NCBI GenBank assembly: GCA_964014485.1
Contig: CAXHAT010000222.1
Span: 1-11,742 of the forward strand
Source of the DNA: an uncultured Deferribacteres bacterium
Lineage (GTDB): Bacteria > Zhuqueibacterota > Zhuqueibacteria > Zhuqueibacterales > Geothermadaptataceae
DNA length: 11,742 bases
Direction: 5' to 3'
Each line of letters begins with the position of its first letter. Within the stretch, counting starts at the first letter, position 1. The notes under the pieces were generated by a model. It saw only the letters and a program-made list of their open reading frames with translations. It was not told where the DNA came from and did not search any database. The position numbers and the translations under genes were made by a program. Below are positions 20-11,742 of this stretch, one piece after another.

Positions 20-178
20 GCCTACGCCGCCTACGCCGCCTGGGCCGCCTCCTACGCCGCCTCCTCCGCCGGAGATGAAAAACTCAAAGAGACGTATTTA
101 TTTAACCAATCAATACTGCTTTTCGGCATCAACGTTTTCAGGCCGAAAAGATGGAGCAGTTTAATTGACAATCTTTAA
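20..178 (+). CDS. 5'-truncated Ala-repeat phage hypothetical protein (AYAAYAAWAASYAASSAGDEKLKETYLF...)
   Basis: Open frame from the adapter junction to TAA at 176-178, with GCC-TAC/TGG/TCC-GCC repeats at 20-70. Not in the ORF track because it has no start codon. It overlaps the next start at 165. Confidence 0.65.
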   Translation, partial: AYAAYAAWAASYAASSAGDEKLKETYLFNQSILLFGINVFRPKRWSSLIDNL

Positions 179-488
179 ATTCAAGCAATACCGCGGCTTC
201 GTCGAATTTTTCCCCTTCTCGTGGCTACCACAGTTTACTTTCTACGGACGCGACTACTGCGATGTGTGTTGGTTGTGGTTCTGCGCAGGATGGGAAAAGG
301 ATGGACTCACTATGCCCTGGGCATGGTTGCAGCCATGTATCCGATGCGATGGTAAGGGAAAGTACGAAGTCCCGGTGTCCGATCAGTTTAAATTTGTGGT
401 TTTTTGCGGCTATTGCGGGGGGATTGGCAGCACAATGCACACGCGCGGTGTTGACGAAATGTTAGAAATACGACAGAATAAACCGTGA
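165..488 (+). CDS. Phage protein with DnaJ-type zinc-ribbon motifs
   Basis: Two CxxCxGxG motifs (CIRCDGKG and CGYCGGIG); TTG start overlapping the upstream ORF. Confidence 0.65.
   Translation: MTIFKFKQYRGFVEFFPFSWLPQFTFYGRDYCDVCWLWFCAGWEKDGLTMPWAWLQPCIRCDGKGKYEVPVSDQFKFVVFCGYCGGIGSTMHTRGVDEMLEIRQNKP
451..479 (+). promoter_or_regulatory. Possible sigma70-type promoter
   Basis: TTGACG (451-456), 17-nt spacer, CAGAAT (474-479), upstream of the probable non-coding gap at 489-634. The -10 match is weak. Confidence 0.25.
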
Positions 489-634: not shown

Positions 635-937
635 ATGAACTTCCAAAAACTTATCGAACTGGCGGTGAAAGTGGCTGAAACGATTGCCGCCGAAACAGAA
701 ACGGAAGTCGATGATAAAATCGTGGACGTGATGAAATTATTGCTGCAATCCGGCGTACTACGTGGATGGATTGAAGGCTCTGTGTCCACCCCGCCCGGTA
801 CGCTGGGGGTGGTTGAATCGCCGTCCCTGCCCGTGCAAAACGAAATACTCGCGCTGGGATTCGGCTTCGACGCCTTCATTGAACTGATCCCACGTATCAA
901 GCAAATACTCGATCTTATCCGTATGTTCTCTAAGTGA
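635..937 (+). CDS. Hypothetical amphipathic phage protein (possibly lysis/membrane associated)
   Basis: ATG at 635 (MNFQKLIELAVKVAETIAAETETEVDDKIV...) is preferred over GTG 542, which lies in the repeat. Coupled to the peptidase gene by a GTGA overlap. Confidence 0.7.
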   Translation: MNFQKLIELAVKVAETIAAETETEVDDKIVDVMKLLLQSGVLRGWIEGSVSTPPGTLGVVESPSLPVQNEILALGFGFDAFIELIPRIKQILDLIRMFSK

Positions 938-1782
938 GGGCGCTGATGACTCCCGCCGACGTTGCCGAAAGACTGTTCGAAACGGGCTGGCTGGACGATC
1001 CCGACGCGTTGGACGACTTAAAACAGATCGTCAAAACGTATCAGCGATGGCACGGACTAAAACCAGACGGTGACGCCGGGCCAATTACGACACGGCATCT
1101 AACCCTTCCCCGGTTCTGTGGACACCCTGACAAAATGTCAGTGCGAGGACGGCCCGCCAAGTGGCGACACCTCGACGTGACGTATTACGTGGCGGCAGAA
1201 CTGCCCGGCATGAGCCTCGACGAAACGTGGAAAGCAACGGATCAAGCCATGCAGTCCTGGAACCGTGTATCCGGGCTGAAACTCCAACGAGCCGGAAGTT
1301 TCCGCGACGCGAATATCCAACTGACCGTGGGAGCAATCGACGGACCAGGCGGGACATTAGCTTGGTCCAATCTGCCTCCCACCAACCCCTGCGGACAAAA
1401 ATACGACTCCCGCGAACGCGGGTGGAGAAACCTTGTCAACCCAGGTGGGTATATAGACGCCGTGGCCGTCATTTGTCACGAAGTAGGACACGCGCTAGGA
1501 CTCGTACATTCCAGCCGGTCAGGGGCGCTGATGGCGCCCACTTACGCACCGGGGCGAAGGACGCCGCAAGGTGATGACGACATTCCGCGAATACAACGCT
1601 TGTACGGGAAGCCGACAAGCGTACCTGACACCAATGACCCGCCGTCAACGGGCGAAGAACCACAAGTAAAAATCGAACTGAGTATTGGCGGGCGTAAGTA
1701 TTCTGCGGCGGGGACCATGAAGCAGCAATTTACGGTGATCGACGAAGAAAAAATAAAGGATGAGGAGTTCGGGAATTTGTGA
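934..1782 (+). CDS. Matrixin (M10 family) zinc metallopeptidase with N-terminal peptidoglycan-binding-like domain
   Basis: HEVGHALGLVH (HExxHxxGxxH, 1477-1509); Met-turn ALMAP; cysteine-switch-like PRFCGHPD (1108-1131); PG-binding-like VKTYQRWHGLKPDGDAGPIT; DGPGGTLA motif typical of matrixins. Confidence 0.9.
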   Translation: MRALMTPADVAERLFETGWLDDPDALDDLKQIVKTYQRWHGLKPDGDAGPITTRHLTLPRFCGHPDKMSVRGRPAKWRHLDVTYYVAAELPGMSLDETWKATDQAMQSWNRVSGLKLQRAGSFRDANIQLTVGAIDGPGGTLAWSNLPPTNPCGQKYDSRERGWRNLVNPGGYIDAVAVICHEVGHALGLVHSSRSGALMAPTYAPGRRTPQGDDDIPRIQRLYGKPTSVPDTNDPPSTGEEPQVKIELSIGGRKYSAAGTMKQQFTVIDEEKIKDEEFGNL

Positions 1783-1788
1783 GATGCA

Positions 1789-3180
1789 ATGCATATTGGG
1801 GCAATATTACTCGCGGCGGTCATCGCCAGCGTACCGTACTCGGCGGAAGACGCCGCGGCGGTGGCTGCGGACTTGGCGAGTATACCCAAAGAGCAGCACC
1901 ACAAGATTTATTACCTGACTACAGCCGCCGTACCTATCGGTGATCGAGAACGTTTGGCGGCTGTCGGCAAAGCGATCATTGCGTCAAGTAGTAGCCAACG
2001 GTTGGTCGAACGTGTCAACCCTGTACCATTACCCGGCGGACGTTTGTGGAGGCTCGACCTCGATGAAGTCAAGTGGGACGCAAAGCAGTTCCGGGACATC
2101 CTCGAGCGCGAGAATCCATACGGCGGACATTGCCTTGTAGTTAGGTGGGACTGGCTTACCGTATTGCTGTCCGATACCACGCAGTCAGACGCACACTACC
2201 GACTGCTGTACAACGACGAAAATATCGACCGTGAAGGCTTCGAGAAGTTTTTTGGAGTCAACACCGACCCCGATTTTCTCGTAGGCTTGGCCGAAGGAAA
2301 GTCGGGGGTCAATGTGTCGGGCAAGCGGTTCATTCAGGACAATCCGACCGACCAACGAGGATACTACTTTATCACGCTCGACAGTGTGAAGCCGGTAGAT
2401 GACAACGATGTGTTGGAGAGGTTGGACCTAAAGAACTTTAAGTTTGACGCGTCGGAGATTATAGCCGGCAGGGAGATTACATCGCTCAAAGAAGGTAAGA
2501 CGGGGATACTCCAGTATTACTTGTTGGCCGACGACGAGGGAAAAAGAGCGGAAGAAGCGCCGCCGAATATCGCCACCGATCACACGCGGTTCCGCGGTCA
2601 AGCGGCGGTGAGAAACTTCGGGTCGTGTGTGACATGCCACACCCAGGGCCTGAACTTTTTCACGGTGGACGAGTACCGGCAAACGCTGCAAAGTGGAACG
2701 CTGGTGCTCACCAAAGACAAGGCGACTCGCGAAAAAATAGAGCTTATTCATCGTCTTACCAAAGAGTCGTTGGAGTCGCACAACGAGCGATACAACCTGG
2801 GTATTCAGTTGGTGTGCGGGTTGACGGCGCCAGAGTTCAGCAAACAGTACAGTGAAGTGGTCAAGGATTACGACGCCGATTTGTCGATCCATGACGTGGC
2901 TCGCGAGGCCGGGGCGTTTGTCGAGGATATTCGCTACGCTTTGGGCTACTATTCGTTGCAGCATCCTGACAAGAATAAGCTCAGCGCCCGATTGGCGCGG
3001 CTGGCTGTGGACGACACTGAGGAGAGTCGCATCTTGTCTCTTGACCTAAAAATACCAAGGATTAATTGGGAGCAGGACATAAAACAACTCAAAGCGGCGC
3101 TGAAACTTTGGCGGTCGGCGTTGAAAGTGGAGGGTGTAGACGCCCGCGAACTACTCCGCCAAGCAAGAGGGCAAAAATGA
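1789..3180 (+). CDS. Exported protein with a single CxxCH c-type heme-binding motif
   Basis: Signal-peptide-like N-terminus (MHIGAILLAAVIAS...); CVTCH at 2626-2640 in the context AVRNFGSCVTCHTQG; 463-aa uninterrupted ORF. Confidence 0.8.
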   Translation: MHIGAILLAAVIASVPYSAEDAAAVAADLASIPKEQHHKIYYLTTAAVPIGDRERLAAVGKAIIASSSSQRLVERVNPVPLPGGRLWRLDLDEVKWDAKQFRDILERENPYGGHCLVVRWDWLTVLLSDTTQSDAHYRLLYNDENIDREGFEKFFGVNTDPDFLVGLAEGKSGVNVSGKRFIQDNPTDQRGYYFITLDSVKPVDDNDVLERLDLKNFKFDASEIIAGREITSLKEGKTGILQYYLLADDEGKRAEEAPPNIATDHTRFRGQAAVRNFGSCVTCHTQGLNFFTVDEYRQTLQSGTLVLTKDKATREKIELIHRLTKESLESHNERYNLGIQLVCGLTAPEFSKQYSEVVKDYDADLSIHDVAREAGAFVEDIRYALGYYSLQHPDKNKLSARLARLAVDDTEESRILSLDLKIPRINWEQDIKQLKAALKLWRSALKVEGVDARELLRQARGQK

Positions 3181-3794
3181 GATACTTACCGATCCTCGCC
3201 ATTATCTTTTTGGCGATTCTCGTAGTCGCGCCGCTCGACGCCGGCGACGGCTGCGGGGCCTTCTTCGGCGCACACAATTATCAGCAGCGCGTGGTTGTTC
3301 CCAAGCAACACATCAAGCAAAGAGTGGTGGTGCGCAAGCAAGCGGTGGTCGAGCACCATCCGGTGCATACCCCGCATATTCAAAAATTCAACGGCTATGA
3401 CGGCCATGTGTATTATCAAGTCGCCCCCTATGTAACGCAGTCGGCTTACGACCGAGTGCGAGAGACGAAATTGGCCGTGGAAGTCGCCAAGGCGGTGATC
3501 GACGGTCTGATCAAAGGCGGCGCGGTGCCGAGTCAGCAACCAGCCGTGCAACAGCCTGGGACGCTGGGATTAAGGCAAAACAGCGTGTTGTCCGCCAAGT
3601 GCGCCTCCTGCCACACCAGGGGCGGGCAAGGCGAAGCGGCGGGATTGCTCGACGGCACAACCCCCGTCTCGGATACGCTGTTTCGTAAGGCCGTGGAACA
3701 AATCGTGTCGGGAGATATGCCCCCAACAGGCGAGCTTGAAGGAGCCGACAAGGGGCGTGTGATGGACGAACTTTTAGGATTAATCGAGCGATGA
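3177..3794 (+). CDS. Exported class I-like cytochrome c domain protein (Planctomycete-type)
   Basis: ATG 3177 in an ATGA overlap; signal peptide MRYLPILAIIFLAILVVAPLDA; CASCH at 3600-3614; distal Met motif GDMPP (Met at 3717); His/Val/Gln-rich linker. Confidence 0.85.
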   Translation: MRYLPILAIIFLAILVVAPLDAGDGCGAFFGAHNYQQRVVVPKQHIKQRVVVRKQAVVEHHPVHTPHIQKFNGYDGHVYYQVAPYVTQSAYDRVRETKLAVEVAKAVIDGLIKGGAVPSQQPAVQQPGTLGLRQNSVLSAKCASCHTRGGQGEAAGLLDGTTPVSDTLFRKAVEQIVSGDMPPTGELEGADKGRVMDELLGLIER

Positions 3795-4155: not shown

Positions 4156-4265
4156 GTGTCATAGGATTTGCTTATTTACTTAACCCTTGGTACCTTATCC
4201 TGACTGTGATCATGATCCTTGTTGACATGGTGATCGCAGTCAAAGAAAAAAGAGGCAGAAAATGA
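4152..4265 (+). CDS. 37-aa single-TM microprotein with basic C-tail
   Basis: MSVIGFAYLLNPWYLILTVIMILVDMVIAVKEKRGRK; ATGA overlaps with both neighbours. Confidence 0.65.
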   Translation: MSVIGFAYLLNPWYLILTVIMILVDMVIAVKEKRGRK

Positions 4266-4603
4266 AAGGCTTTATTTTGTGCGGCGTTGTGGCGGCGCTA
4301 TTAGCATTTTCGGTTAGCGAGGCGGAAGCGTTTGATGGCCGGTTGGGATTTCGTAGCCGGTTAGGCTTTCGCGCTCGATTTGTGAGGCCGCGGTTCCGTG
4401 CGCCTTTGCGTTTTCGCGCACCAATTGTTGTGCGTCCGCAGCGCGTGGTTGTGCGCCCTCGCGTACAGCAGTTCGTCCAACCGCAGCGCGTAATCGTGCA
4501 GCCGCAGGTGCAATATGTGCAGCCGCAAGTACAGCAGTTCGTCCAACCTCAGGTGCAGTACGTGCAGCCGCAACAGAGTTGCCAACAACTGTTTGGCTAT
4601 TAA
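4262..4603 (+). CDS. Exported low-complexity Arg/Phe- and QPQV-repeat protein
   Basis: Signal peptide ending AEA; RLGFR x2, FRAP x2 and VQPQ repeats; a 20-bp exact DNA repeat at 4463-4482 and 4529-4548. Confidence 0.8.
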   Translation: MKGFILCGVVAALLAFSVSEAEAFDGRLGFRSRLGFRARFVRPRFRAPLRFRAPIVVRPQRVVVRPRVQQFVQPQRVIVQPQVQYVQPQVQQFVQPQVQYVQPQQSCQQLFGY

Positions 4604-5599: not shown

Positions 5600-5898
5600 G
5601 TGAGAACTTTGAAGTTTGGAAAGATAAATTTGCCTGGGGTTCGGTGGCCGGGGTGCTGCTGTGGAATATCACGGCGTCCTGGATGCTTTTCAACCGGCCT
5701 GACATTGACGAGGTGCGGCATATCGTGAGGACCGAAGCCCCTTACGTAGCCGATAAGGAATTGATACGCGAGCAAATGCAGCAAACAGCGGCGGTAAACG
5801 CCAAGTTGTCAGTGTCGATTGATCGCAATACCGAAGCGATCAATTTGTTGCGATTGGAAATCGTGAAGGTGCAGAACGGAGGCATGGCTCGTAAATGA
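5596..5898 (+). CDS. Single-TM plus coiled-coil membrane protein
   Basis: ATG 5596 in an ATGA overlap; TM segment FAWGSVAGVLLWNITASWML; heptad-like C-terminus (SIDRNTEAINLLRLEIVKV). Confidence 0.75.
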   Translation: MSENFEVWKDKFAWGSVAGVLLWNITASWMLFNRPDIDEVRHIVRTEAPYVADKELIREQMQQTAAVNAKLSVSIDRNTEAINLLRLEIVKVQNGGMARK

Positions 5899-6254
5899 AC
5901 GTATTCGACACCACTGATTTCATTACCCGCGATTGCTGCGGCACATGGGGGATGTGGCAATACTGGGCGCAGTTTTTTGACCTGCTGCTTTTTGCCGCCT
6001 ACTTTGTGATCCCGTATTGGTTTTGGCGTCAGACTAAAAACAGTCCTATGTGGCGGCGATGGCCAGTAATCCCGTTGATTGCTTTTTTCCTTGGTTGTGG
6101 GTTAGGACACTTGGCGGATTTCGCCGCTTTTTGGTGGGCGCCATATCGACTTTACACGCTGATCGACGGCTTCACCGCCATTAGTTCTGTGGTGTTTGCG
6201 GTCGGCGCGTCAGTGTTTGTGCATCTCATTCTGGGCGGGGGCGCGGATGAGTGA
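5895..6254 (+). CDS. Stand-alone ETR1-like (ethylene receptor-type) three-TM Cu-binding sensor domain
   Basis: D29-x6-Y36-F-x-I39-P40, C68-G-x-x-H72 and T94-A-x-x-S98 reproduce the spacing of Arabidopsis ETR1 D25/Y32/I35/P36, C65/H69 and T94/S98; three hydrophobic helices; no GAF or kinase domain. Confidence 0.85.
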   Translation: MNVFDTTDFITRDCCGTWGMWQYWAQFFDLLLFAAYFVIPYWFWRQTKNSPMWRRWPVIPLIAFFLGCGLGHLADFAAFWWAPYRLYTLIDGFTAISSVVFAVGASVFVHLILGGGADE

Positions 6255-6699
6255 AACACTAAAAATAATCGAGTCATTTGGCTTGCCGTTGGTTATGTTG
6301 GCGGGGATGGGGTGGTTGTCTCTCCGCGCCGGCAATTATTTTGTGAACAAGGTGTTGGAGCCAGTGCGAGTGCGATTGATTGGCGAAGGGGAGAAGCCGG
6401 GACTGCTCGACAAATATGGAAAACTGGCCGAAGCCGCTACGGAAAGTGTGGAGGGGATGGTGGAGCGGGTTGAACGCCTGAACCATTCTTTCAACCAACT
6501 CGGCAATGAACAGAAGGAAGTCCTTCAAGAAATTTTAGATGTGCACAAGGATGAAAACAGCATTTTTGCGACGAAGAAAACCAATGGAGCGATATTGATT
6601 TTGGCGCGGCAAATTGCAGTACTGGCCGCGGCTATGGACGGCGAAAAAGCGAACGAAATACAGCGGGACGCGGAAAGAATCAAGGAGTTGCTGAGTTGA
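6247..6699 (+). CDS. N-terminal TM plus coiled-coil protein (holin/BhlA-like architecture)
   Basis: ATG 6247 overlaps the upstream stop; IIESFGLPLVMLAGMGWL TM segment followed by helical heptads. Confidence 0.7.
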   Translation: MSETLKIIESFGLPLVMLAGMGWLSLRAGNYFVNKVLEPVRVRLIGEGEKPGLLDKYGKLAEAATESVEGMVERVERLNHSFNQLGNEQKEVLQEILDVHKDENSIFATKKTNGAILILARQIAVLAAAMDGEKANEIQRDAERIKELLS

Positions 6700-6902
6700 A
6701 TCCGCAGCATTACACAACTATTTTTATCATTGGCGTGTTTTTGTTGGTGGTTGCCTATGATTTGTGGGTTATAATCCACCACGGTACGGAGGCCAGCATT
6801 TCGCATGTGGTGCGGTCGTGGAACGCAAAGAATCGGTTTGTGGGCTATACGCTGGCCTTCGCTCTGGGGGCGTTGTTCTGGCACTTTTTTGGATTGGACT
6901 GA
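6696..6902 (+). CDS. Small two-TM membrane protein (holin-like size and topology)
   Basis: TTG start overlapping TGA; two hydrophobic segments; YD...ASIS...LFWHFF motifs. The coding frame is supported by the synonymous-only divergence of its duplicated 3' end. Confidence 0.8.
   Translation: MNPQHYTTIFIIGVFLLVVAYDLWVIIHHGTEASISHVVRSWNAKNRFVGYTLAFALGALFWHFFGLD
6858..6902 (+). repeat. 45-bp direct repeat, copy 1 (3' end of ORF 6696-6902)
   Basis: TTCGCTCTGGGGGCGTTGTTCTGGCACTTTTTTGGATTGGACTGA, 39/45 identical to 7147-7191. Confidence 0.9.
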
Positions 6903-7144
6903 TGAGAGTCAGAGAACTGATTGAACAATTGGAACGGTATTGCGACAAAGAGTCCTTGGTCGTCTTGTCGCGTGATGCAGAGGGCAATGGGTTCAAGCCA
7001 TTGTCGGGCTTGGGCCTAAACAACCGTTATAAAAACGGCGACGTGGGATTGGACCACCTTACGCACGAGTTGGAGGCAAGGGGATATTGCGAAGAAGATG
7101 TGGTGGATGGCGGCGAGAGGTGTGTTGTTTTGTGGCCAGAGTAG
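6902..7144 (+). CDS. 80-aa acidic phage hypothetical protein (RDAEGNGF motif)
   Basis: TGATG coupling at 6900-6904; MRVRELIEQL N-terminus typical of small phage proteins; lies exactly between the two 45-bp repeats. Confidence 0.8.
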   Translation: MRVRELIEQLERYCDKESLVVLSRDAEGNGFKPLSGLGLNNRYKNGDVGLDHLTHELEARGYCEEDVVDGGERCVVLWPE

Positions 7145-7735: not shown

Positions 7736-8352
7736 TGGCAGATTTCACACAGTCCAAAAGTGCGATCATATCTCATCAGGCAGTGACTAATCCCGAGTCG
7801 GTCAAGGGTTCGGCAGTTGATATCCGGGAGGCGCTCGACGCCCTGATTGTGATTCGCCATGCATACATTGAGGCCGTTGATCCGGGAGGGATCGAACCGG
7901 AATTTCATGTCATGGCGTCACTCGATCAAACAGCGTCTCCGCCGGCGGACAGTTGGTTCAAAGTCGTTTCGTTCAAGGCGACCGATCCCGGTGCTGCGCC
8001 GGCAACCGAGGCCATGACCGCCACTGAACCAGCAGCGGAAACGTCGTTGGCGTGCGCGTCAACGACGGGCTTCGCAGCAGGCGACGAGATTTATGTGCGA
8101 GATACTTCGACCGAAGCCAATAGCGAATGGCACGTTATCGACAAGATTGTTACGAACACTTCGATTGATATTTTCGAAGGGTTGGTAAATCAGAAAGACA
8201 ACGCTGATATTATTTGGGGCAGCGCGCAGGCGTTTAGAATTCCTATTCCTGGGAACGTGGGCCACATTAATGTGTATTACTCCAATGAAGGCTCGTCCGC
8301 GCCCAATACGGCCGTAATCGCTGAAGCCCTGGTTAACACCGATCTCGAATGA
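7735..8352 (+). CDS. Putative virion beta-rich structural protein
   Basis: MADF start; acidic, Ala/Thr/Ser-rich; ASTTGFAAGDEIYV pattern seen in phage tail/virion proteins. Confidence 0.65.
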   Translation: MADFTQSKSAIISHQAVTNPESVKGSAVDIREALDALIVIRHAYIEAVDPGGIEPEFHVMASLDQTASPPADSWFKVVSFKATDPGAAPATEAMTATEPAAETSLACASTTGFAAGDEIYVRDTSTEANSEWHVIDKIVTNTSIDIFEGLVNQKDNADIIWGSAQAFRIPIPGNVGHINVYYSNEGSSAPNTAVIAEALVNTDLE

Positions 8353-9239
8353 TAATCAGACAAGAGCGACAACACGATAACATCAATTGGATGTGTCCAG
8401 TAAATTGGATGCATCCCCTAAACCATAAACTGTCATCATTTTGGATGCCGATTCCAAATCAGCCGGGGTGGAAGTCAAATCGAGTTATTGATATTTCTAA
8501 CCCCGTTAATGGATACCACGGGGATATGTCCAGTATGATTGCTGAGGAGGCTTGTGTTCCGAGTGGTAGATCCGATGGGTTTGGCGCGTGGGAGTTTGAC
8601 GGTTCAAATGACAAAATCGAATTAACCCCTCAAGCGGATACTGACCCTCTTGAGCGAGCTTCTAATGATGGCAGTTTCTCAGTTGAAGCGTTTGTTTTTC
8701 CTACAAACAACACGCACGACAATGACATTTTAGTGAAGGGGCAACATGCAGGGGGAAATCCGTTTATACTTTGGCTAGACAATGGTTCCCCAGATGTTTG
8801 GTCAGTATTAATAACTGACAGCGCTCTGCATACCACGGGCGCTCTGCAATCTGCAACGACCGCATTGGCAAATGTGTGGACCCATCTTGTTGTATCGTTG
8901 CAGTCAGATTTAGAAATAAGAATGTGGATAAACGGAGAAGAAGACAGCAATAGTCCTTTTTCCGCTGCAACCATTACAGGCTTAAATAGAACTTCCGACA
9001 CTCTTTTAATTGGTTGGGATTCTGCCAGTACAAGCAACAAGCAATTTACTGGATTGGTCAGACACGTCAAATTTTTCAATGACTTTCTCGCAGACTCAGA
9101 AGCAAAATCACTGTACCATGAAACAATCAACGGCTATCCGACTGTGCTGAACCGCGTGCAATCGCCGTTGGTGAAAATTTCGGCGGCAACGACTAGCTTC
9201 CCCTTCCAGTATTACTACGCGCAGCAGGGGGCTTTGTAG
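8349..9239 (+). CDS. LamG/concanavalin A-like lectin domain protein (putative receptor-binding/virion protein)
   Basis: AWEFDGSND, FSVEAFV, NVWTHLVV...MWING, LLIG, FTGLVRHVKFFNDFLADSEAKSLY match the Laminin_G_3 pattern. Confidence 0.85.
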   Translation: MIIRQERQHDNINWMCPVNWMHPLNHKLSSFWMPIPNQPGWKSNRVIDISNPVNGYHGDMSSMIAEEACVPSGRSDGFGAWEFDGSNDKIELTPQADTDPLERASNDGSFSVEAFVFPTNNTHDNDILVKGQHAGGNPFILWLDNGSPDVWSVLITDSALHTTGALQSATTALANVWTHLVVSLQSDLEIRMWINGEEDSNSPFSAATITGLNRTSDTLLIGWDSASTSNKQFTGLVRHVKFFNDFLADSEAKSLYHETINGYPTVLNRVQSPLVKISAATTSFPFQYYYAQQGAL

Positions 9240-10559
9240 ATGTTCAAGAATACGGGCTCGCAAAAACTGACCGTGCTGGCATTCGCCGACGCCGGCCATG
9301 CCTCGCTGGACGCTGGCGACCGGGTAACCGGCGACGCGGCTAATATCACTTGCAAGATCGAGCAAGACGATGACGGTACGCAATCGGCTTCTAACGACAC
9401 TAACCCTAGCGAAGTCGAAGACGGCCAGTATCGATTCGACCTCACGCAAGCCGAAACTAACGGCGATAAATTAACGTTCTATCCCGAATCTTCCACGGCG
9501 GGCGTGCAGGTGGTGGCGTTGCCGTCCAACGTGATTTACACGCGACCTCCTAATTTTCCAGCGATGGGTATCGAGACAGATGGGCACGTGCATGGCGATG
9601 TGAAGGAGATTGAAGGGGTAGACGCCACTGACCAAATTAATGCGGCCTGCGATACGGCGCTCAGCGATTACGACGGACCCACCAATGCCGAGATGGAGGC
9701 TCGAACACTGGTGGCGGCGAATTATGGGACAGCTTCAAACCAGGTAACAATTGAGAGCAAGATCGACACGGTGGACGGCATTGTAGACAATATTCTTACG
9801 GACACAGCGACCACCATACCGGGTTTGATTTCCGGCCTCAACGACCTGTCTACTGGAGATATTGACACCCGTCTTGCGGCCATCGGCCTCGATCACCTGG
9901 TGTCCGCGGCGGTCGTCGGCGCGGACGTAACAGACAACTCGATTGTCGCCAAGCTGGTGAGTGCTTCGGCCACCGCCGACTGGGACGATTTCGTCAACAC
10001 TACTGACTCGCTCCAGGCGGTGCGCGACCGCGGCGACTCGGCCTGGATCACCGCTACCGGATTCTCGACGCACACCGCGGCCAACGTCCGCACCGAGATG
10101 GACGCCAACAGCACGCAGCTTGCCGCGATTGTGGCCGACACCAACGAGTTGCAAGGTGACTGGACTAACGGTGGGCGGCTTGACCTGATTATTGACGCTA
10201 TCCTCGTTGATACCGGAACGACCCTCGACTCCAAGATTGATACCATTGACACCAACGTCGACTCGATCCTGGCCGACACGGGTACAGACGGCGTGGTGGT
10301 GGCCGCTGGGAGCAAAACAGGCTACTCGCTCGCATCGACGGGTCTTGATCTAGTCGTACCCGCCGATCCGAGCGCGATCCCCGTACTGGGAACGGCTAGC
10401 GTTGTCACGTGGATTGGCTACTTCGGAGCATGGACAGTCAACGAGGTCAATTCGGACAGCGACAGTGTGGACCTGCGCAACTCCGGCGACACTGCCAATC
10501 TGACCACGCATGCCACCAGTGACGACGGGACGACCTTTGTTAGCGGAGCCGCGACGTAA
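9240..10559 (+). CDS. Acidic Asp/Thr/Ala-rich putative tail/virion protein with internal repeats
   Basis: 439 aa; N-terminal GQYRFDLTQAETN domain; repeated KIDTxDxxVDxILxDT and I(L/V)xDT motifs. Confidence 0.75.
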   Translation: MFKNTGSQKLTVLAFADAGHASLDAGDRVTGDAANITCKIEQDDDGTQSASNDTNPSEVEDGQYRFDLTQAETNGDKLTFYPESSTAGVQVVALPSNVIYTRPPNFPAMGIETDGHVHGDVKEIEGVDATDQINAACDTALSDYDGPTNAEMEARTLVAANYGTASNQVTIESKIDTVDGIVDNILTDTATTIPGLISGLNDLSTGDIDTRLAAIGLDHLVSAAVVGADVTDNSIVAKLVSASATADWDDFVNTTDSLQAVRDRGDSAWITATGFSTHTAANVRTEMDANSTQLAAIVADTNELQGDWTNGGRLDLIIDAILVDTGTTLDSKIDTIDTNVDSILADTGTDGVVVAAGSKTGYSLASTGLDLVVPADPSAIPVLGTASVVTWIGYFGAWTVNEVNSDSDSVDLRNSGDTANLTTHATSDDGTTFVSGAAT

Positions 10560-10948: not shown

Positions 10949-11230
10949 ATGGGTAAAAAGAAAAAAGCCGATTCTACACCGCCGCCATGGCGAGACAGGG
11001 TGAAAGAGTTTCGCCGCGTTCGGGCGAGTGAGTTGAAGGCGCATGCGCAGAACTGGCGTACTCACCCGGAGGGCCAGCGCAAGGCGATGTCGGCGGTATT
11101 GCGGGAGGTTGGTTTTGCGGGCGCGGTGATTGCGCGCGAGACGGAGAATGGCGGTCTGGAAGTCATCGACGGCCACTTGAGGACGGAGATGGACCCGAGC
11201 GCGGAAACACTCCACCAGATTATGGTCTAG
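10949..11230 (+). pseudogene. ParB/Srx-like N-terminal fragment of a phage ParB-DNA methyltransferase fusion
   Basis: L..H..NWRTHP..Q, EVGFAGAVIARE, VIDGHLR (ParB-like DGHxR motif); runs out of frame about 8 codons after this motif. Confidence 0.75.
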
Positions 11231-11526
11231 GCAACAACGAAAGAACGCAGACAACCGTATGGGAGGTGGACGGTGTTCCTAACGCAGAAAGAAAGGAATG
11301 GAATCACTCAACGCCTAAACCCGTCAAGCTATTTGAAATACCTATTGTCAAACATCTAAAAAAAGGAGAAATTGCGTATGAACCGTTTGCGGGTTCAGGC
11401 CCGCAATTTATCGCCGCCGAGCAACTGGGGCGCAAGTGTTACGGCATGGATATCAGCCCGCAATATTGTGACGTCATCGTACAGCGGTGGGAGAACTTGA
11501 CGGGAAAGAAAGCGACGAGAGGTTAA
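11200..11526 (+). pseudogene. C-terminal fragment of beta-class N6A/N4C DNA methyltransferase
   Basis: RGNTPPDYG..TQTTVWEV, HSTPKPV, EPFAGSG (motif I), AAEQLGRKCYGMDISPQYCDVIVQRW; the catalytic DPPY motif and the N-terminal half are absent. Confidence 0.8.
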
Positions 11527-11527
11527 A

Positions 11528-11742
11528 ATGCCTGGACAAACCGGAAAGAAATTTACCAAGCGAGAGGTGGAGGCTCGGCGAGCACGGGTCATGAAAGCCG
11601 TGCTCCGCGGCGTGAGTCGCGCAGAGTTGGCGCAGCAGGAAAATGTGTCGACGATGCAGATTTGTTACGACATTAAGGCGGTGCGAAAAGAGTGGCGCGA
11701 GTCTCGCATAGACGACTGCGACACGCTGATTACGCAGCAACT
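11528..11742 (+). CDS. HTH DNA-binding protein, probable terminase small subunit (3'-truncated)
   Basis: MPGQTGKKFTKREVEARRARVMKAVLRGVSRAELAQQENVSTMQICYDIKAVRKEW...; HTH pattern; position after ParB-MTase is typical of packaging modules; open to the window end. Confidence 0.7.
   Translation, partial: MPGQTGKKFTKREVEARRARVMKAVLRGVSRAELAQQENVSTMQICYDIKAVRKEWRESRIDDCDTLITQQ

Follow-up and report, generated by a model that had tools for sequence, protein, structure and literature searches.

The membrane sensor domain of ethylene receptors, the ETR1_N family, is familiar mainly from plants and from a small number of bacteria. In the plant receptor ETR1, Asp25 aids the binding of copper and of ethylene and forms with Lys91 a polar bridge that passes the signal to helix III and the output part, as stated in excerpts of PMC10266040, where Asp is given for 93.55% and Asn for 3.67% of 1,221 domains at this position; these excerpts and the abstract of PMC11971883 report that the exchange Asp25Asn cuts the ethylene affinity of ETR1 about 100-fold. 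Excerpts of PMC11819568 name seven residues as required for ethylene binding and describe the first 130 residues of the Azospirillum receptor AzoEtr1 as binding ethylene in yeast by themselves, so that a domain of this size can be ligand-competent alone. The DNA analysed here (the window) is the whole 11,742-bp contig CAXHAT010000222.1 of an 8.4-Mb assembly in 465 contigs from an uncultured Deferribacteres bacterium, and was found to carry a gene for a 119-amino-acid (aa) protein matching this domain and little else. It is very probable that the gene is intact in a tailed phage of ~51 kb and encodes a true ETR1_N family protein.

The domain family as such is already known, and the new element is a phage-borne lineage in which the domain stands alone. 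Its free-standing occurrence in tailed phages prompts one to ask how a virus would profit from a membrane module that binds copper or a gas. An earlier note on this DNA knew of no described phage system of this kind, and no description of a phage stand-alone ETR1_N protein was found in the literature searched; the reviews by Carlew et al. and by Papon and Binder lay outside that search and may treat domains lacking an output part. The word 'ethylene' is absent from the paper on Maribacter phage Molly (PMC8776804), which carries a homologue described below.

The 119-aa protein and its family

The open reading frame (ORF) of the gene (Table 1) translates into a protein that includes DLLLFAAYFVIP, AFFLGCGLGH and GFTAISS. 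Its start codon at 5895 overlaps the stop codon of the upstream ORF in the sequence ATGA, and the ATG of the next gene, at 6247, overlaps its last 8 nt. Comparison with Pfam gave a match to PF25487 (ETR1_N) with E 1.6e-12 and 48 bits (cut-off 27), covering residues 25–106 of the protein and positions 6–88 of the 97 in the profile. When genomes were searched in six frames with PF25487, the window gene scored 47.7 bits and none of 14 control genomes matched, and the match is therefore far above chance. ETR1_N is the only Pfam match in the protein, the C-terminus of which lies 5 residues past helix 3, and no match was obtained with PHROG (limit E 0.01) or NCBIfam. Neither in the protein nor in the flanking ORFs did Pfam and NCBIfam detect an output part of the GAF/PAS, HisKA, HATPase or receiver type.

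Three hydrophobic segments are in line with three transmembrane (TM) helices, which the AlphaFold2 model, built from an alignment of 104 relatives, places at residues 20–47, 58–77 and 84–114 with a predicted local distance difference test (pLDDT) score of 94.6 and a predicted template-modelling score of 0.83. The loop with R45, K48, R54 and R55 is positively charged and, by the positive-inside tendency, suggests a topology with the N-terminus outside and the C-terminus inside. Foldseek comparison of the model with the PDB gave nothing at E 0.001 or better, a PDB profile search with the ETR1_N family returned only coiled-coil noise (E 0.034 or weaker), and a wide VIA fold search reached at best Z 8.9 with generic helical bundles, which is under the meaningful level for such folds. 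The best fold match in a viral structure library was a 289-aa entry (template-modelling score 0.68, root-mean-square deviation 1.8 Å, E 0.027), inferred from its length only to be gp065 of phage Molly.

The reading of the ORF, the PF25487 score and the AlphaFold2 model bear out the earlier description of a three-TM protein with ETR1-like motifs, bounded by overlapping start and stop codons, containing a true ETR1-like domain and devoid of an output domain.

Copper-site residues and the positions of the relay pair

Residues were counted over an alignment of 183 sequences comprising 117 short and 66 long forms. The column of Cys68 is occupied by Cys in 114 short and 65 long forms, that of His72 by His in 114 short and all 66 long forms, and that of Tyr36 (ETR1 Tyr32) by Tyr in 113 and 65, respectively. 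In helix 1 of the window protein the pocket residues D29, Y36, I39 and P40 correspond to Asp25, Tyr32, Ile35 and Pro36 of ETR1, a list of ethylene-binding residues that was taken from the earlier note; the alignment agrees with its statement that D, Y, I, P, C and H are all kept at the right spacing. The RxxCGxW motif ahead of helix 1, which is probably extracytoplasmic, is conserved to a similar degree in short forms (R in 107, C in 114, G in 109 and W in 114 of 117) and in long forms (64–66 of 66), and R12, C15, G16 and W18 are each at least 90% conserved among 104 short forms.

The two positions of the ETR1 relay pair behave differently from the copper ligands. At position 29 the short forms have Asn in 68 and Asp in 32 of 117 cases, and the long forms have Asp in 62 of 66; at position 91 Asp occurs in 44 and Lys in 19 of the short forms, with Lys or Arg in 24 of 117 short against 62 of 66 long forms. 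Asp paired with Lys or Arg at 29/91 is thus found in 62 of 66 long forms versus 20 of 117 short forms, and the pairs counted in the latter were acid-base (20), amide-acid (38), acid-acid (5) and amide-base (3). Columns 29 and 91 co-vary among short forms with a Fisher p of 1.7e-9, uncorrected for phylogeny. In the window protein the Asp25-Lys91 relay is absent because Lys91 is replaced by Asp. The short forms as a group keep the copper site (~98%), mostly without the Asp25-Lys91 pair typical of kinase-fused forms, and the lineage is a natural experiment in which, with the copper site kept and the Asp-Lys relay rebuilt, binding is separated from output.

A lineage of short forms

An HMMER search over 1.84 billion cluster representatives disclosed 736 proteins at E ≤0.001, 27 of them at E ≤1e-10. 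The best 150 of the 736 (50%-identity clusters) include 104 of ≤250 aa and 46 of >250 aa, a share of short forms that is biased upward because the 150 were chosen by likeness to the query; the 104 divide into 22 of ≤140 aa, 12 of 141–180 aa and 70 of 181–250 aa. Stand-alone forms are therefore not exceptional among the nearest clusters, and the earlier statement that homologues are normally fused to kinases did not hold there. When 38 of the 150 were scanned with Pfam, the 14 short forms scored 54.5–89.7 bits on ETR1_N with no other domain above its cut-off, and 22 of the 24 long forms scored 98–128 bits, the exceptions being P0040 (52 bits) and P0083 (63 bits). Among the 24 long forms, 21 bear parts of the PAS, HisKA, HATPase, receiver, Hpt or HDOD type. 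The ~200-aa forms have a helical tail, and a hidden Markov model (HMM) of it matches the region just past the membrane domain of long forms (E 1e-6 to 5e-3). A split gene, with the coiled-coil tail supplied by the flanking proteins, was considered and rejected, as the lowest E that an HMM built from 70 tails reached with the window ORFs was 0.24.

For 183 domain sequences, without L005 and L006 because these duplicate L004, a quick IQ-TREE search (LG+G4) gave a tree, rooted at its midpoint, on which the state changed between short and long 12 times, versus 51–59 times in the five shuffles shown of the 200 run. The window protein falls in a 36-member clade of short forms only (support by the Shimodaira-Hasegawa-like approximate likelihood-ratio test, SH-aLRT, 77) together with the phage copies L003 and L013, and this clade is nested in a region of ~100 short proteins with one long exception; seven phage proteins form a separate clade (SH-aLRT 96). 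Judged from these sequences, the 119-aa protein belongs to an old, diversified, mostly short-only lineage without an output part and is not a recent kinase fragment; the recently truncated host kinase that the earlier note had named as a refutation did not apply.

For the scans of loci a first, too diverse alignment was replaced by smaller ones; a scan of metagenome contigs with a smaller alignment gave 15 loci, mostly on short contigs, which were used only for the HMM hit list.

Predicted homodimer

Prediction of self-pairing gave a score of 0.43 (runs 0.46, 0.43 and 0.40; best of three controls 0.00), which is barely over the mark of 0.42 and was obtained with an alignment made in this analysis. 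The mark was attained by 20 of 30 solved homo-pairs and by 1 of 23 solved single chains. Contacts agree to at least 89% and the partner pLDDT is at least 68; helix 1 of one chain packs against helix 3 of the other, and Asp91 contacts Asp29, Leu32 and His72 of the partner chain. PDB fold and profile searches found no solved structure of an ETR1-like membrane domain or of a like complex, so that the score cannot stem from a solved complex known to the predictor. The 119-aa protein is thus predicted to form a homodimer. In the dimer modelling suggested in the earlier note, the score thus passed the mark with His72 at the interface, by a small margin and as a model score. As the membrane domain of ETR1 is unsolved, complete natural proteins of 119–140 aa made of hardly more than this domain are attractive for structure work and for the chemistry of copper and ethylene binding.

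Phage origin of the window

The window genes share one direction and many overlap. The last 55 nt of the window (11688–11742) are identical to positions 39080–39134 of another contig of the assembly (C62, 39,134 bp), and this is the sole such match in the assembly. The first gene of C62 encodes a terminase large subunit (phrog_979, E 3.1e-49), and further genes encode a head-tail adaptor, a neck protein, a DNA-pilot protein, a Mu-type portal domain and a helicase. Joined through the overlap, the two contigs measure 11,742 + 39,134 − 55 = 50,821 bp, and an identical 119-aa protein is on record on a contig of 52,338 bp, near this joined size. By tetranucleotide deviation the window contig is fourth of 278 in the bin, and its guanine-plus-cytosine (GC) content is 53.2%, against 50.3 ± 1.6% for the bin contigs. 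The overlap with a terminase-bearing contig, the composition and the relatives of the 439-aa window protein on viral contigs of IMG/VR bear out the earlier placement of the gene in a phage, and the window is part of a tailed-phage genome of ~51 kb in all.

Scans of 43 C62 ORFs and 20 window ORFs gave no match to an integrase. Circular closure of the window with C62 was tried and rejected, as no overlap was found and the 5' end of the window is adapter-like. A tblastn search of the bin with proteins of phage G041 and of locus L017 (see below) gave no packaging or portal match, and the C62 overlap was the only short match between the window and the remainder of the bin, with none to clustered regularly interspaced short palindromic repeats (CRISPR). 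Three DNA runs of one study contain parts of the window at low depth and with identical letters, and no RNA run was listed.

Positions 1–19 of the window are adapter-like, presumably a Nextera-type transposase mosaic-end adapter, and are followed by a GC-rich low-complexity stretch to ~75. In three public runs, contigs continue from position 18/19 into many unrelated sequences, and the 5' end is therefore an assembly artefact and not a genome end.

Other phage, prophage and genome loci

Two pattern scans of IMG/VR disclosed 18 distinct viral contigs with an ETR1_N gene. Stand-alone homologues, which the earlier note had proposed to seek there, are present on 14 of them (L003, L007–L016, L143, L145 and L149), and kinase-type copies on four (L004, L005, L006 and L144). 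All 16 further distinct viral ORFs pass the PF25487 cut-off, with 49.7–123 bits. Genes around the viral copies encode tail, tail assembly, terminase, portal, endolysin and replication proteins, and about two thirds of the 16 phage loci (14 viral contigs, the window and L017) adjoin tail, structural or packaging genes.

As for the kinase-type copies, L004–L006 carry an identical 479-aa ETR1_N-PAS-HisKA-HATPase protein on three contigs of 49–61 kb (9980–11419 in L004), and L144 carries a 371-aa ETR1_N-HWE kinase (5956–7071) on a contig of 279 kb.

Copy L003 lies on a complete phage, G041 (54,317 bp, 144-bp direct terminal repeats, CheckV 100%), with genes for portal, head-morphogenesis, neck and tail-spike proteins and DnaB. 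Its ETR1_N protein has 125 aa. G041 and the window share three genes in similar order, with amino acid identities of 40% for the ETR1_N protein, 44% for a ParB-like part and 50% for a methyltransferase part. In G041 a Peptidase_S8 protein, a di-haem cytochrome c peroxidase (CCP_MauG, 142.9 bits) and two membrane proteins are followed by the ETR1_N gene, which is on the same strand as this upstream set, across the terminal repeat (L135 2055–4422).

Locus L014 is the cultured Maribacter phage Molly, the gp065 product of which (289 aa, annotated as hypothetical) scores 60.9 bits on ETR1_N. The gp065 gene comes after tail genes and ahead of the large terminase gene, and stops 3 nt before gp066, an Amidase_3 endolysin. 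With a homologue in the cultured pair Maribacter phage Molly and Maribacter forsetii, function is directly testable. Homology between the TM and coiled-coil proteins encoded upstream in the window and in Molly was considered and rejected (no alignment at E 100 or better; E 8.5), and the parallel is architectural only, in two cases.

Among species-representative genomes, 19 of 21 ETR1_N matches are long, kinase-sized and from Verrucomicrobiota, Planctomycetota, Bacteroidota and others, and two are short. One of the two (L017, 198 aa), in an Isosphaeraceae metagenome-assembled genome, lies ~2 kb from terminase and portal genes and is therefore a prophage copy; no phage gene was found within 10 kb of the other (L033). 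The ORFs of the G041, Molly and L017 copies are complete up to their stop codons and lie on long contigs.

None of 80 viral loci reached via the 439-aa window protein has an ETR1_N gene, which makes it a sporadic accessory gene. When 50,697 deposited phages were searched with five queries, only Mollyvirus records matched, with L012 and L014 as queries; L011, L003 and the window protein gave no match. As a single query the window protein had no match in IMG/VR, metagenome contigs or deposited phages.

Other genes of the window and of the linked contig

Features of the window are collected in Table 1. The ETR1_N gene is translationally coupled with three genes for small membrane proteins, for which no relatives were found at other ETR1_N loci. 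No match was obtained for the upstream one in Pfam, PHROG or NCBIfam; the Pfam matches of the downstream one are all sub-threshold, and the 68-aa protein has no Pfam match at cut-off.

Table 1 Features of the 11,742-bp window and of the stand-alone ETR1_N gene.
Feature	Position	Strand	Basis
Stand-alone ETR1_N (ethylene-receptor-like) three-helix membrane protein, 119 aa	5895..6254	+	ORF translation, PF25487, AlphaFold2
N-terminal R12-x-x-C15-G16-x-W18 motif codons, ahead of helix 1	5928..5948	+	conservation in relatives
Asp29 codon (gac), equivalent to ETR1 Asp25	5979-5981	+	alignment
Cys68 codon (tgt), equivalent to ETR1 Cu(I) ligand Cys65, helix 2	6096-6098	+	alignment
His72 codon (cac), equivalent to ETR1 Cu(I) ligand His69, helix 2	6108-6110	+	alignment
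Asp91 codon (gac), at the position of ETR1 Lys91	6165-6167	+	alignment
Cys-rich protein, 107 aa, with CxxC pairs (C..C..GKGK, CGYCGG), zinc-ribbon-like	165-488		appearance
Peptidase_M10 (matrixin-like) protein	934..1782	+	PF00413, 80.3 bits
Two exported or membrane-anchored CxxCH haem-c proteins, 463 aa (CVTCH) and 206 aa (CASCH)	1789..3794	+	translations
Two-TM protein, 82 aa	3791-4039		hydropathy
Protein of 113 aa with signal-peptide-like start, Arg-rich stretch and QPQVQ(Y/Q)(V/F)QPQ repeats; no family match	4262-4603		
Upstream gene, ~98 aa: weakly hydrophobic N-terminal segment, then helical, coiled-coil-like region	5602..5898	+	
Downstream gene, 150 aa: N-terminal hydrophobic segment, then helical region	6247..6699	+	
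Protein of 68 aa with two hydrophobic segments; 4-nt overlap with preceding gene	6696..6902	+	
Phage structural-type genes: Laminin_G_3 protein (296 aa) and 439-aa protein	8349..10559	+	
ParB-like N-terminal piece (93 aa) and DNA methyltransferase C-terminal piece (86 aa)	10949-11230; 11266-11526		
Helix-turn-helix (HTH) protein, open at contig end	11528..11742	+	HTH_23, 20.5 bits, under cut-off

The Peptidase_M10 protein, with a PG_binding_1 segment at 21.5 bits (under the cut-off of 23), is the sole candidate wall-active enzyme of the window and is encoded 4.1 kb upstream of the ETR1_N gene. Of the two haem-c proteins the smaller matches Cytochrome_CBB3 with 24.4 bits, under the cut-off of 27, and the larger has no Pfam match. 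The 296-aa protein matches Laminin_G_3 with 62.1 bits and phrog_8510, a virion structural protein, with E 9.2e-09. For the 439-aa protein (9240–10559) 139 relatives occur on IMG/VR viral contigs with patchy matches of up to 79% identity over short segments, which suggests a mosaic fibre-like or receptor-binding-like protein. G041 has an intact 439-aa ParB-methyltransferase fusion, to the ends of which the ParB-like and methyltransferase pieces correspond, and, to judge from this comparison, the middle part seems to be missing from the window copy. As the large terminase follows on C62, the HTH protein may be the small terminase subunit. Promoter and terminator scans were at chance level (11 versus 8.5 ± 2.7 and 16 versus 14.2 ± 3.5).

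On C62, between packaging and head genes, a 214-aa protein is encoded on the minus strand (L139 15159–15800) that matches phrog_3704 (ferredoxin, listed as moron or auxiliary metabolic gene) with E 4.5e-49 and has no Pfam match.

Proposed function and alternative explanations

The function favoured for the 119-aa protein, tentatively and with a probability of roughly 0.35–0.4, is that of an autonomous copper-dependent membrane switch. The protein would bind Cu(I) like its receptor relatives and, no phosphorelay being possible without an output part, would act alone in the host inner membrane, where it would answer a small molecule (an alkene or gas) or the redox or copper state. The switch would be made together with the small membrane proteins whose genes are closely coupled to its own, for which the overlapping stop and start codons on both sides count, and in the course of infection it would change how permeable the membrane is or act on the state of a partner membrane protein. 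A Cu or gas sensor acting through neighbouring membrane proteins, and a Cu sink, were possibilities that the earlier note had named. An effect on permeability is conceivable because excerpts of a preprint (10.1101/2025.10.20.683334) report that ETR1 and ERS1 are Ca2+-permeable in oocytes and that the effect of ethephon is lost in a C65S homologue. A bolder form of the idea, that phage stand-alone ETR1_N proteins are ligand-gated, cation-permeable switches in which the copper site opens a leak at an acidic dimer interface (Asp29 and Asp91 of the partner chain), appears distinctly improbable; if it were true, the phage would tie depolarisation of the host membrane and the timing of lysis to an environmental chemical cue, as a sensor-holin and thus a kind of phage lysis control not so far described.

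Several observations weigh against an autonomous copper-dependent switch. The Asp/Asp pair of the window protein is a minority state, found in 5 of 117 short forms, and Phe65 takes the place of Ile62 of helix 2, presumably one of the seven binding residues of ETR1; this change is hydrophobic and conservative, and the column holds Ile in 96 and Phe in 10 of 117 short forms and Ile in 59 of 66 long forms. As Asp25Asn lowers affinity so strongly in ETR1, most short forms may bind ethylene poorly or bind another ligand, and copper and ligand binding by the window protein are themselves argued from its residues. The genetic context is not uniform, with L016, L143 and L149 lying among replication genes, and an enrichment of membrane proteins beside the ETR1_N gene, considered as a candidate feature, was unsupported (12 of 49 neighbours versus 46 of 261, p 0.17, by a crude hydropathy predictor with ORFs under 60 aa dropped). 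The query-driven choice of the 150 relatives and the narrow pass of the dimer score, given above, belong on the same side.

Class I holins are defined by three helices with the N-terminus outside and the C-terminus inside, and the size, helix number and predicted topology of the 119-aa protein fit this class. It could therefore be a holin or antiholin proper, a three-helix protein that oligomerises late and frees the endolysin, its likeness to ETR1_N reflecting ancestry and not sensing. The gene lies among those of small membrane proteins in one translationally coupled run, and gp065 of Molly directly precedes an endolysin gene; in its excerpts PMC8776804 reports an amidase and no holin in that phage, and proteins with one to four TM domains near lysins. 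Yet Molly is the only one of the 16 phage loci with a recognised endolysin adjacent, some copies lie among replication genes, and the window protein has no match in the PHROG lysis category (E 0.01) or to a Pfam holin (E 0.1); the sole holin-family match in the family, at L008, reaches 16.8 bits against a cut-off of 28.4. The window also offers other candidates, namely the 82-aa and 68-aa two-TM proteins. Cys, His, Tyr and RxxCGxW are near-invariant across relatives of 25–47% identity, which points to a cofactor or ligand site that holins do not need. A holin role is regarded as unlikely. Doubtful as well is a role in copper or redox handling, in which the protein would be a membrane Cu(I) sink, buffer or hand-over point and would belong to an accessory island of redox proteins, exported and supplied by the phage to the host envelope. 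The Cys and His ligands for Cu(I) are conserved, the ETR1_N genes of the window and of G041 are both downstream, on the same strand, of genes for an exported protease and haem-c proteins, and C62 encodes the ferredoxin-named phrog_3704 protein. However, the window and G041 are related through their three shared genes (40–50% identity) and together count as a single observation, neither cytochromes nor copper proteins were noticed in the vicinity of the gene at other phage loci, and the cytochrome-domain match in the window is below the Pfam cut-off (24.4 vs 27). One to two Cu(I) per dimer, the stoichiometry from ETR1 work cited in the excerpts of PMC10266040, would moreover make a poor sink.

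Truncated plant ethylene receptors act dominantly, and the earlier note had put forward a decoy that pairs with host sensor kinases, mixed dimers with an ETR1_N kinase blocking or locking its signalling. The phyla which these phages appear to infect commonly have ETR1_N domains fused to kinases (the 19 long matches of 21 above), the ~200-aa relatives keep a tail like the kinases' post-membrane linker helix, and a genome with a chromosomal, non-phage short copy (G043) also has two long ETR1_N proteins. For the phage copies the idea was nevertheless weakened: apart from the window gene no ETR1_N match turned up in the bin, which is 97% complete, the lysogen genome G042 (11.3 Mb) carries the prophage copy only, and one of 40 relatives has a match, which is sub-threshold (22 bits). 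This evidence is limited in that the host is known by binning, a weak assignment for a contig that is a composition outlier. In addition, the short lineage is old and divergent (54.5–89.7 bits versus 98–128 for most long forms), and the predicted interface positions 29 and 91 differ from the Asp and Lys of the kinases, so that mixed dimers would not be favoured; a decoy is thus held to be quite improbable. Scarcely credible is a functionless remnant or hitch-hiker, or a bacterial fragment mistaken for phage DNA. The adapter-like start of the window and one clearly fragmented gene (the ParB-like/methyltransferase pieces of 93 and 86 aa, against the intact 439-aa fusion in G041) speak for it, but the ETR1_N ORF is intact with coupled neighbours, its AlphaFold2 model is confident, the contig is joined to the terminase-bearing C62, and the key residues are kept across relatives of 25–47% identity, on 14 viral contigs and in a prophage.

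Comparison with known systems

With class I holins such as lambda S105, as these are generally described, the 119-aa protein shares the character of a small three-helix phage inner-membrane protein encoded in a late, tightly packed gene run; it differs from them by its metal-site signature, by the lack of holin-family likeness and by the rarity of an adjacent endolysin (1 of 16 loci). Molly gp065 is likewise a phage-encoded ETR1_N domain without a kinase, but it falls in the other clade, which consists of phage proteins only (SH-aLRT 96), carries ~160 aa of C-terminal domain of no known family, lacks the N-terminal Cys motif in the alignment and directly precedes an endolysin.

Like the ethylene-binding domain of plant ETR1 and ERS1, the window protein has three membrane helices, a Cys and a His separated by one turn of helix 2, and Asp, Tyr, Ile and Pro residues spaced along helix 1 as in ETR1, and it is predicted to pair as a homodimer. 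Unlike the plant receptors, it is phage-encoded, has no GAF, kinase or receiver part, carries Asp in place of Lys91 and Phe in place of Ile62, and has the extra N-terminal RxxCGxW, which is common to the bacterial long forms. SynEtr1 of Synechocystis and AzoEtr1 of Azospirillum have the same N-terminal domain family and, as far as the excerpted sources describe them, PAS and histidine-kinase parts and a phosphorelay, whereas the window protein ends past helix 3; bacterial long forms in general score 98–128 bits (22 of 24 scanned) against its 48 bits.

The nearest relatives are the short ETR1_N proteins with a coiled-coil tail (~190–215 aa; from metagenomes and loci L017, L008, L009 and L143). 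Unlike these, the window protein has no helical, linker-like tail of ~80 residues, and its neighbours do not supply one (best E 0.24); it shares with them 33–47% identity among the best dozen, the same mostly short region of the tree and the same conserved residues.

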